Positions 32,410 to 35,037 of a stretch of 64,000 bases of DNA are shown here, piece by piece. Position numbers and translations under genes: made by a program. The stretch lies in assembly GCF_017348835.2 (NCBI RefSeq), contig NZ_CP071375.1; one strand, 5' to 3'. The notes under the pieces were generated by a model. That model had not been told where the DNA came from, did no database searches, and worked only from the letters and a program-made list of their open reading frames with translations. This stretch comes from Escherichia coli (GTDB lineage: Bacteria > Pseudomonadota > Gammaproteobacteria > Enterobacterales > Enterobacteriaceae). Position 1 is the stretch's first letter. The number at the start of each line of letters is the position of its first letter.

Positions 32410-35037
32410 TTATTCTTCTTCTGGCTCGTCGTCAACGTCCACTTCCGGAGCGATTTCATCGTCCCCTTCCGCGGCACTGCCGTCGATGGTGTCCAGATCT
32501 TCCTCGTCAACCGGTTCAGCAACACGTTGCAGACCCACTACGTTTTCATCTTCCGCAGTACGGATGAGGATCACGCCCTGGGTGTTACGGCCCACGATGC
32601 TGATTTCTGAAACGCGAGTACGTACCAGCGTACCGGCGTCGGTGATCATCATGATCTGATCGCAATCATCTACCTGCACCGCGCCAACCACTAAACCGTT
32701 ACGTTCGGTAACCTTGATGGAGATAACCCCTTTCGTCGCACGCGACTTAGTCGGGTATTCCGCCACTGCGGTACGTTTACCATAACCGTTCTGCGTTGCG
32801 GTGAGGATTGCGCCATCGCCACGAGGCACGATCAGAGAGACGACTTTATCACCTTCGCCTAAACGAATACCGCGAACACCGGTGGTGTTGCAGCCCATCG
32901 CACGGACAGAAGACTCTTTAAAGCGCACCACTTTACCTTCGGCGGAGAACAGCATTACTTCGTCTTCGCCGCTGGTCAGGTCAACGCCGATCAGCTCATC
33001 GCCTTCAACCAGTTTGATCGCCACTTTACCGGCGGTACGCAGACGGTTGAACTCGGTGAGGACGGTTTTCTTCACAGTACCGTTAGCGGTCGCCATGAAG
33101 ACTTTCACGCCTTCTTCAAACTCGGTCACCGGCAGGATCGCGGTGATACGTTCGTCCTGCTCCAGCGGCAGCAGGTTGACGATCGGACGACCGCGCGCGC
33201 CACGAGTGGCCTCCGGCAACTGGTAAACTTTCATCGAATAGACGCGACCACGGCTGGAGAAGCACAGAATATGGTCGTGCGTGTTCGCCACCAGCAGTCG
33301 GTCGATAAAGTCTTCTTCTTTAATACGTGCGGCAGATTTACCTTTCCCGCCACGACGCTGCGCTTCGTATTCAGAAAGCGGCTGATATTTAACGTAGCCC
33401 TGGTGAGAGAGCGTCACGACCACATCTTCCTGGGTGATCAGATCTTCCAGGTTGATGTCTGCGCTGTTGGCGGTGATTTCAGTACGACGTTTGTCACCGA
33501 ACTGTTCACGAACCAGCTCCAGCTCTTCACGGATCACTTCCATCAGACGATCGGCGCTACCAAGAATACGCAGCAGTTCCGCGATCTGATCCAGCAGCTC
33601 TTTGTATTCGTCGAGCAGTTTTTCGTGCTCAAGGCCGGTCAGTTTCTGCAAACGCAGATCCAGAATCGCCTGAGCTTGCTGTTCGGTCAGGTAGTACAGA
33701 CCATCACGCACGCCGAACTCTGGCTCCAGCCATTCCGGACGCGCAGCATCGTCGCCAGCACGTTCGAGCATCGCGGCAACGTTGCCCAGCTGCCACGGAT
33801 TAGCAACCAGCGCAGTTTTCGCTTCTGCAGGCGTCGGCGCATGACGGATCAGTTCGATGATCGGGTCGATGTTCGCCAGCGCCACGGCTAATGCTTCAAG
33901 GATATGAGCACGATCGCGAGCTTTACGCAGTTCGAAAATAGTACGACGGGTCACCACTTCACGGCGGTGACGAACAAACGCCGCGATGATGTCTTTCAGG
34001 TTCATGATCTTCGGCTGACCATGGTGCAATGCCACCATGTTGATACCGAAAGAAACCTGCAACTGGGTCTGGGAGTAGAGGTTGTTGAGCACAACTTCAC
34101 CGACCGCATCGCGTTTCACTTCAATCACGATGCGCATACCGTCTTTGTCAGACTCGTCACGCAGCGCGCTGATGCCTTCCACGCGTTTTTCTTTTACCAG
34201 TTCCGCAATCTTCTCGATCAGGCGCGCTTTGTTTACCTGATACGGAATTTCGTGGACGATAATGGTTTCACGTCCGGTTTTGGCGTCAACTTCCACTTCA
34301 GCACGGGCGCGGATATATACCTTGCCGCGACCGGTACGGTAAGCTTCTTCAATACCGCGACGACCGTTAATGATTGCCGCCGTCGGGAAGTCCGGCCCCG
34401 GGATGTATTCCATCAGCCCTTCAATGCTGATGTCTTCATCATCGATATACGCCAGACAACCGTTGATGACTTCCGTCAGGTTGTGCGGCGGGATGTTGGT
34501 TGCCATACCTACGGCGATACCGGAAGAACCGTTCACCAGCAGGTTAGGAATTTTGGTTGGCATGACGTCCGGAATTTTTTCCGTGCCGTCATAGTTATCA
34601 ACGAAATCGACCGTCTCTTTTTCGAGATCGGCCATCAGTTCATGGGCAATTTTCGCCAGACGGATTTCCGTATAACGCATTGCCGCCGCAGAGTCGCCGT
34701 CGATGGAACCGAAGTTACCCTGACCGTCTACCAGCATGTAACGCAGCGAGAATGGCTGCGCCATACGGACGATCGTGTCATAAACCGCCGAGTCACCATG
34801 GGGATGGTATTTACCGATTACGTCACCAACGACACGGGCAGATTTTTTATAGGCTTTGTTCCAGTCATTGCCTAGTACGTTCATGGCGTAAAGTACGCGA
34901 CGGTGTACCGGTTTCAGGCCATCTCGGACATCTGGCAGCGCACGGCCAACAATGACCGACATCGCATAATCCAGATAGGAGCTCTTCAGCTCTTCCTCAA
35001 TGTTGACCGGTGTAATTTCTCTCGCAAGGTCGCTCAT
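32410..35037 (-). CDS. gyrA: DNA gyrase subunit A (875 aa)
   Basis: Full-length GyrA; active-site Tyr region and acidic C-terminal tail; QRDR reads [10 protein letters not shown] (S83, D87). Confidence 0.97.

Follow-up and report, generated by a model that had tools for sequence, protein, structure and literature searches.

The 64,000-nucleotide stretch of Escherichia coli DNA analysed here, referred to below as the window, almost certainly carries the chromosomal gyrA of a strain close to E. coli PE164 and F2_81, and the full-length GyrA encoded by it presents an unmutated quinolone-binding surface and would be expected to bind fluoroquinolones normally. Indeed, codons 83 and 87 encode the wild-type residues Ser and Asp, and nothing in the window sequence contradicts a wild-type gyrA. 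The gene is identical at the DNA level, over its full length, to the gyrA of PE164 (NZ_CP114128.1) and of F2_81 (NZ_CP043542.1), while the next best matches, at 99.5% identity, are found in O157:H7 strains.

Codons 83 and 87 and the quinolone-resistance-determining region

On the plus strand, window positions 34777-34791 read GTCATAAACCGCCGA, and the reverse complement of this segment, TCG GCG GTT TAT GAC, translates as SAVYD, within the 15 residues that 34762-34806 encode on the minus strand. An earlier note on this DNA had assigned Ser to codon 83 and Asp to codon 87, and this assignment is borne out, as TCG and GAC are read directly at these two codons when they are numbered from the ATG (Table 1). 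The ten-residue peptide by which the note had located them is present as well; however, it spans 34777-34806, and the range 34777-34791 given for it holds only its last five residues.

MG1655 gyrA (b2231) served as the K-12 reference; structures of its product are PDB 6rks, 1ab4 and 3nuh. The window gene differs from K-12 gyrA at 38 of 2628 bases (98.55% DNA identity), and 36 of these changes are synonymous. The two proteins agree in length (875 aa), in the quinolone-resistance-determining region (QRDR), in Tyr122 and in the GyrA box, and the genes have the same neighbours and the same 98 bases upstream. Positions 51, 67, 81, 82, 84, 106, 119 and 196, which are further reported quinolone-resistance sites of GyrA, show no substitution relative to K-12 at the amino-acid level, the K-12 residues being encoded at codons 51, 119 and 196 as well. 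Within the QRDR, the limits of which (67-106) are reportedly those of Yoshida et al. 1990, only three differences from K-12 were found, all of them synonymous, at V85 (GTT), R91 (CGT) and Y100 (TAC). Resistant E. coli alleles with S83L or with D87N, D87G or D87Y are altered in the same gene and at the same codons, but none of these substitutions is present in the window. A cluster member that was sampled, P0006, has a GyrA with S83L and D87Y, unlike the window.

Table 1. Positions in the window of gyrA, of its codons and flanking elements and of genes of the prophage region.
Feature	Position	Strand	Basis
gyrA coding sequence (DNA gyrase subunit A), 875 codons and stop	32410..35037	-	ORF list
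Codon 83, TCG, Ser, wild type	34789..34791	-	counted from ATG; same codon as K-12
Codon 87, GAC, Asp, wild type	34777..34779	-	counted from ATG; same codon as K-12
QRDR, codons 67-106, K-12 residues at all 40	34720..34839	-	codon-by-codon comparison with K-12
Codon 122, Tyr, motif AAAMRYTE	34672..34674	-	read from translation; same in 6rks
Codon 211, TAC, Tyr (K-12 CAC, His), H211Y, outside QRDR	34405..34407	-	comparison with K-12 and 6rks
Codon 678, GAA, Glu (K-12 GAC, Asp), D678E, common polymorphism, C-terminal domain	33004..33006	-	comparison with K-12 and 6rks
Region upstream of gyrA, 98 bases, identical to K-12, holds TGTTATAAT	35038..35135	-	comparison with K-12
Terminator-like stem-loop, ~20 bases past gyrA stop	32373..32390	-	consensus scan, pattern match only
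yfaT/magC (DUF1175) pieces	N-terminal part 29950-30603; small remnant ~16093-16182		annotation transferred from PE164
Prophage integrase	28885-29955	+	annotation transferred from PE164
nleA, type III effector gene	16784-18025	+	annotation transferred from PE164
nleG, type III effector gene	18719-19366	-	annotation transferred from PE164

Frequency of the wild-type sequence

Genome counts were made by megablast with 30-base queries and an exact word of 28 bases against 5426 complete E. coli genomes. With such a word in a 30-base query any internal mismatch abolishes the match, and the counts are lower bounds because other synonymous variants inside the 30 bases are missed. The wild-type sequence of codons 80-89 was found with GTT at codon 85 in 2013 of the 5426 genomes and with GTC in 639, that is in at least 2652 (49%) in total. 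No other single state of the QRDR is as common as the wild type, and there is therefore nothing unusual in the window gyrA, which is in a common allelic state that is already known and is neither new nor surprising. Its value is that of a routine genotype call, of use to a resistance profile, for a strain free of the gyrA target mutations that make E. coli resistant to fluoroquinolones at a clinically relevant level.

Quinolone binding and susceptibility of the strain

In the winged-helix domain of GyrA, helix alpha-4 carries Ser83 and Asp87 close to the catalytic Tyr122. When gyrase or topoisomerase IV has a fluoroquinolone bound, these two residues are the anchor of a water-Mg2+ bridge, the metal ion of which is chelated by the keto-acid of the drug. 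The bridge is lost with S83L or D87N/G/Y, the first-step mutations towards resistance in E. coli, in which gyrase is the primary quinolone target and parC mutations raise resistance only after gyrA is mutated. With Ser83 and Asp87 intact, the quinolone-binding surface of the window gyrase is unmutated and, judging from what is known of the family, normal binding of fluoroquinolones would be predicted. Since both residues are intact, the first step of target-based resistance in E. coli has not been taken in this strain.

The earlier note had described this genotype as the fluoroquinolone-susceptible state. This holds for the GyrA target, the QRDR being that of K-12, but susceptibility at the level of the strain does not follow from gyrA alone: a wild-type gyrA is not enough for a susceptible strain because parC, parE, gyrB, plasmid genes and efflux are outside the window. 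A strain with this gyrA could still be less than fully susceptible by way of qnr, aac(6')-Ib-cr, qepA or oqxAB, or through efflux via marR, acrR or soxR. These plasmid and efflux-regulator loci all lie beyond the window, and plasmid genes for quinolone resistance are frequent in pig-associated E. coli, both of which count in favour of such a determinant. However, in PE164, the nearest complete genome and used here as a proxy, ParC (752 aa), ParE (630 aa) and GyrB (804 aa) each show 100% amino-acid identity to K-12, and on the 41.7-kb plasmid pPE164, the sole PE164 plasmid record examined, no qnr, aac(6')-Ib-cr, qepA or oqxAB is annotated. The ParC result also bears on the earlier note's advice to check parC elsewhere in the genome, which could be followed in the proxy, the gene being outside the window. 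Moreover, plasmid and efflux mechanisms without a gyrA mutation normally give only low-level resistance, which counts against this explanation as well, and we consider it unlikely. Strain-level susceptibility is what we infer from the proxy genome PE164 only, with which a susceptible genotype agrees; given its wild-type gyrA, the strain would be held to low-level resistance at most, via plasmid genes or efflux.

The substitutions H211Y and D678E

The only amino-acid differences between the window GyrA and that of K-12 are H211Y and D678E. Their distribution was examined first in the complete E. coli genomes, where the 30-mer around codon 211 with CAC (His) matched 5097 of 5426 and the one with TAC (Tyr) matched two, PE164 and F2_81, both of them pig isolates. 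In a wider protein collection the K-12 GyrA protein and the protein with D678E only were each found on at least 1000 contigs and the protein with H211Y only on 2, while the exact protein with both substitutions was found on 97 contigs, and in 147 blocks of a second index. Five assemblies carrying the latter protein were sampled; in three the gyrA DNA is the same as in the window and in the other two it is 1 and 5 bases off. Because the sampled DNA is identical or only 1-5 bases apart, the H211Y+D678E allele is clonal.

Neither substitution falls within the QRDR, and both are most likely neutral markers of the lineage. H211Y is here fixed on a fully wild-type QRDR in an E. coli lineage of attaching-effacing type, represented by two complete genomes, both from pigs. 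Its occurrence on such a background is mildly notable and shows that it needs no QRDR mutation to be present, and the lack of any QRDR mutation beside it argues against H211Y being a mere compensatory change for S83L. We regard this as a minor footnote to epidemiology and evolution.

Shigella flexneri GyrA with H211Y has the identical replacement of His by Tyr at codon 211, and this substitution outside the QRDR is typical of that species. In resistant S. flexneri it commonly accompanies S83L, with or without D87G/N, and parC S80I, whereas in the window it is found with a wild-type QRDR and D678E. This raises the question of whether H211Y itself shifts quinolone susceptibility or gyrase activity, in which case the allele would not be functionally wild type in spite of its QRDR. 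The companionship with S83L, D87G/N and parC S80I in S. flexneri resistant to fluoroquinolones, where H211Y has been called an 'unusual' non-QRDR mutation (PMC5989582), speaks for such an effect, as does the speculation that the Shigella isolates benefit from it (PMC10269460). On the other hand, the S. flexneri serotype 4s isolates of one study all had H211Y, whether fluoroquinolone-sensitive or not (PMC4931504), residue 211 is well outside 67-106, and in the window no QRDR change stands alongside H211Y, as would be seen with a lineage marker. A Shigella survey in Taiyuan reported H211Y or D678E across all of its 218 isolates, with separate sets of isolates in S. flexneri (H211Y in 103 and D678E in the remaining six), and with D678E in 105 and H211Y in only four S. 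sonnei; its authors said that the role of H211Y and D678E in resistance needs further study (PMC10269460).

Taken together, an influence of H211Y on susceptibility or on the activity of the enzyme seems quite improbable, and we give the same low credence to a real gyrase effect in the form of an altered supercoiling set-point, or of a slightly changed sensitivity to quinolones by which the lineage would be pre-adapted to QRDR mutations. If such an effect were true, the lineage would offer a natural, isogenic-like background on which H211Y could be measured free of S83L. The preferred reading of H211Y and D678E is that of neutral lineage markers.

Relation to PE164 and F2_81

PE164 was isolated in Nanjing from a pig, from diarrhoea and blood, and F2_81 is also a pig isolate. 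Over 25 kb the window shares 99.9% identity with each of the two genomes, without a perfect match to either. Against the PE164 chromosome, window positions 1-13822 and 13710-19640 are 100% identical, 19638-55037 are 99.958% identical and 54922-64000 are 99.989% identical. The sole structural difference is an extra 1.3-kb IS3-family element in PE164, at a site corresponding to ~ 19638-19640 in a phage tail-fibre gene remnant; the other differences are small gaps and a few mismatches. As the window is without the IS3 element of PE164, it comes from a strain closely related to PE164 rather than from that assembly itself.

This relationship also bears on whether the Ser83 and Asp87 codons might be an artefact of assembly or sequencing. 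Nothing speaks in favour of this possibility, and the gyrA DNA is base for base the same in two independent complete genomes and the same again in three of five other public assemblies with the identical protein, which makes an artefact exceedingly improbable.

Outside the window, at 640-722 kb of the PE164 chromosome, the pitB-nfeF segment, with parC and parE in it, has the opposite orientation to that in K-12. An integrase island and a copy of IS3 lie next to one junction of this inversion.

Identity and surroundings of the gene

The gyrA open reading frame runs on the minus strand from an ATG at 35037 to the end of its stop codon at 32410, and its product of 875 aa is, as read from the sequence, a full-length and apparently functional GyrA. 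With the NCBIfam equivalog model for GyrA, TIGR01063, the cut-off of which is 877, it reaches 1309 bits, and it aligns end to end with the solved E. coli GyrA of PDB 6rks, to which it is identical at 873 of 875 residues. Given that SAVYD lies inside an 875-aa frame with this score and this identity, a chance match of the motif is of no concern. The C-terminal domain aligns with 1zi0 over residues 535-841, and PF03989 (DNA_gyraseA_C) is on record for a protein identical to the window GyrA. The translation of this domain contains the GyrA box QRRGGKG; the C-terminal beta-pinwheel with this box is a feature of GyrA that is missing in ParC. Tyr122, which we take to be the catalytic, DNA-cleaving tyrosine of the winged-helix domain, is likewise present.

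The gene order in the window, yfaA-gyrA-ubiG-yfaL, is that of K-12, and gyrA is annotated in 5425 of the 5426 complete E. coli genomes. The earlier note's call of gyrA is supported by model scores and by synteny; that note left the minus strand unstated. A frame of the paralogue parC (topoisomerase IV subunit A, motif HPHGDSACYE), to which gyrA numbering would not apply, can be dismissed: ParC models do match the N-terminal half of the protein, but the 582.5 bits to TIGR01062 (parC_Gneg) are below that model's own cut-off of 628.9 whereas the cut-off of the GyrA model is exceeded, the motif is SAVYD and not the SACYE of PE164 ParC, and the GyrA box, the gene order, the near-complete identity to 6rks and the DNA match of 100% to the genes annotated as gyrA in PE164 and F2_81 all belong to gyrA.

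Upstream of gyrA, an extended -10-like element, TGTTATAAT, was read directly on the minus strand at 35090-35082, and the upstream region that holds it is the putative gyrA promoter. A consensus promoter scan upstream of the gene called no promoter because there is no good -35 match. On the opposite strand, two plus-strand open reading frames lie antisense to gyrA, including its QRDR, at 33904-34875 (323 aa) and 34680-34955 (91 aa). As genes they have no independent support, and they are most likely shadow frames of the conserved gyrA frame.

Other features of the window

Window positions ~ 16175-29955, about 13.8 kb, are the remnant of a lambdoid prophage integrated in yfaT/magC (DUF1175), of which pieces are found on both sides (Table 1). 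The presence of nleA and nleG in this remnant marks the strain as an E. coli of attaching-effacing type.

Adjacent to the remnant, yfaS (alpha-2-macroglobulin; 11555-16174, minus strand) is split by an internal stop into two open reading frames, 11555-15298 and 15326-16174, and is annotated as a pseudogene in PE164. At ~ 3064-5008 on the plus strand, an atoS without its C-terminus abuts an atoC without its N-terminus, as if through an internal deletion. Both genes are annotated as pseudogenes in PE164, to which the window is 100% identical at this place, and the acetoacetate two-component regulator encoded by them is probably inactive. Finally, the autotransporter adhesin gene yfaL/ehaC (36047-39781, minus strand) encodes 1244 aa in the window; among the five sampled assemblies with the window gyrA allele this length is found in four, and the fifth has 1238 aa.
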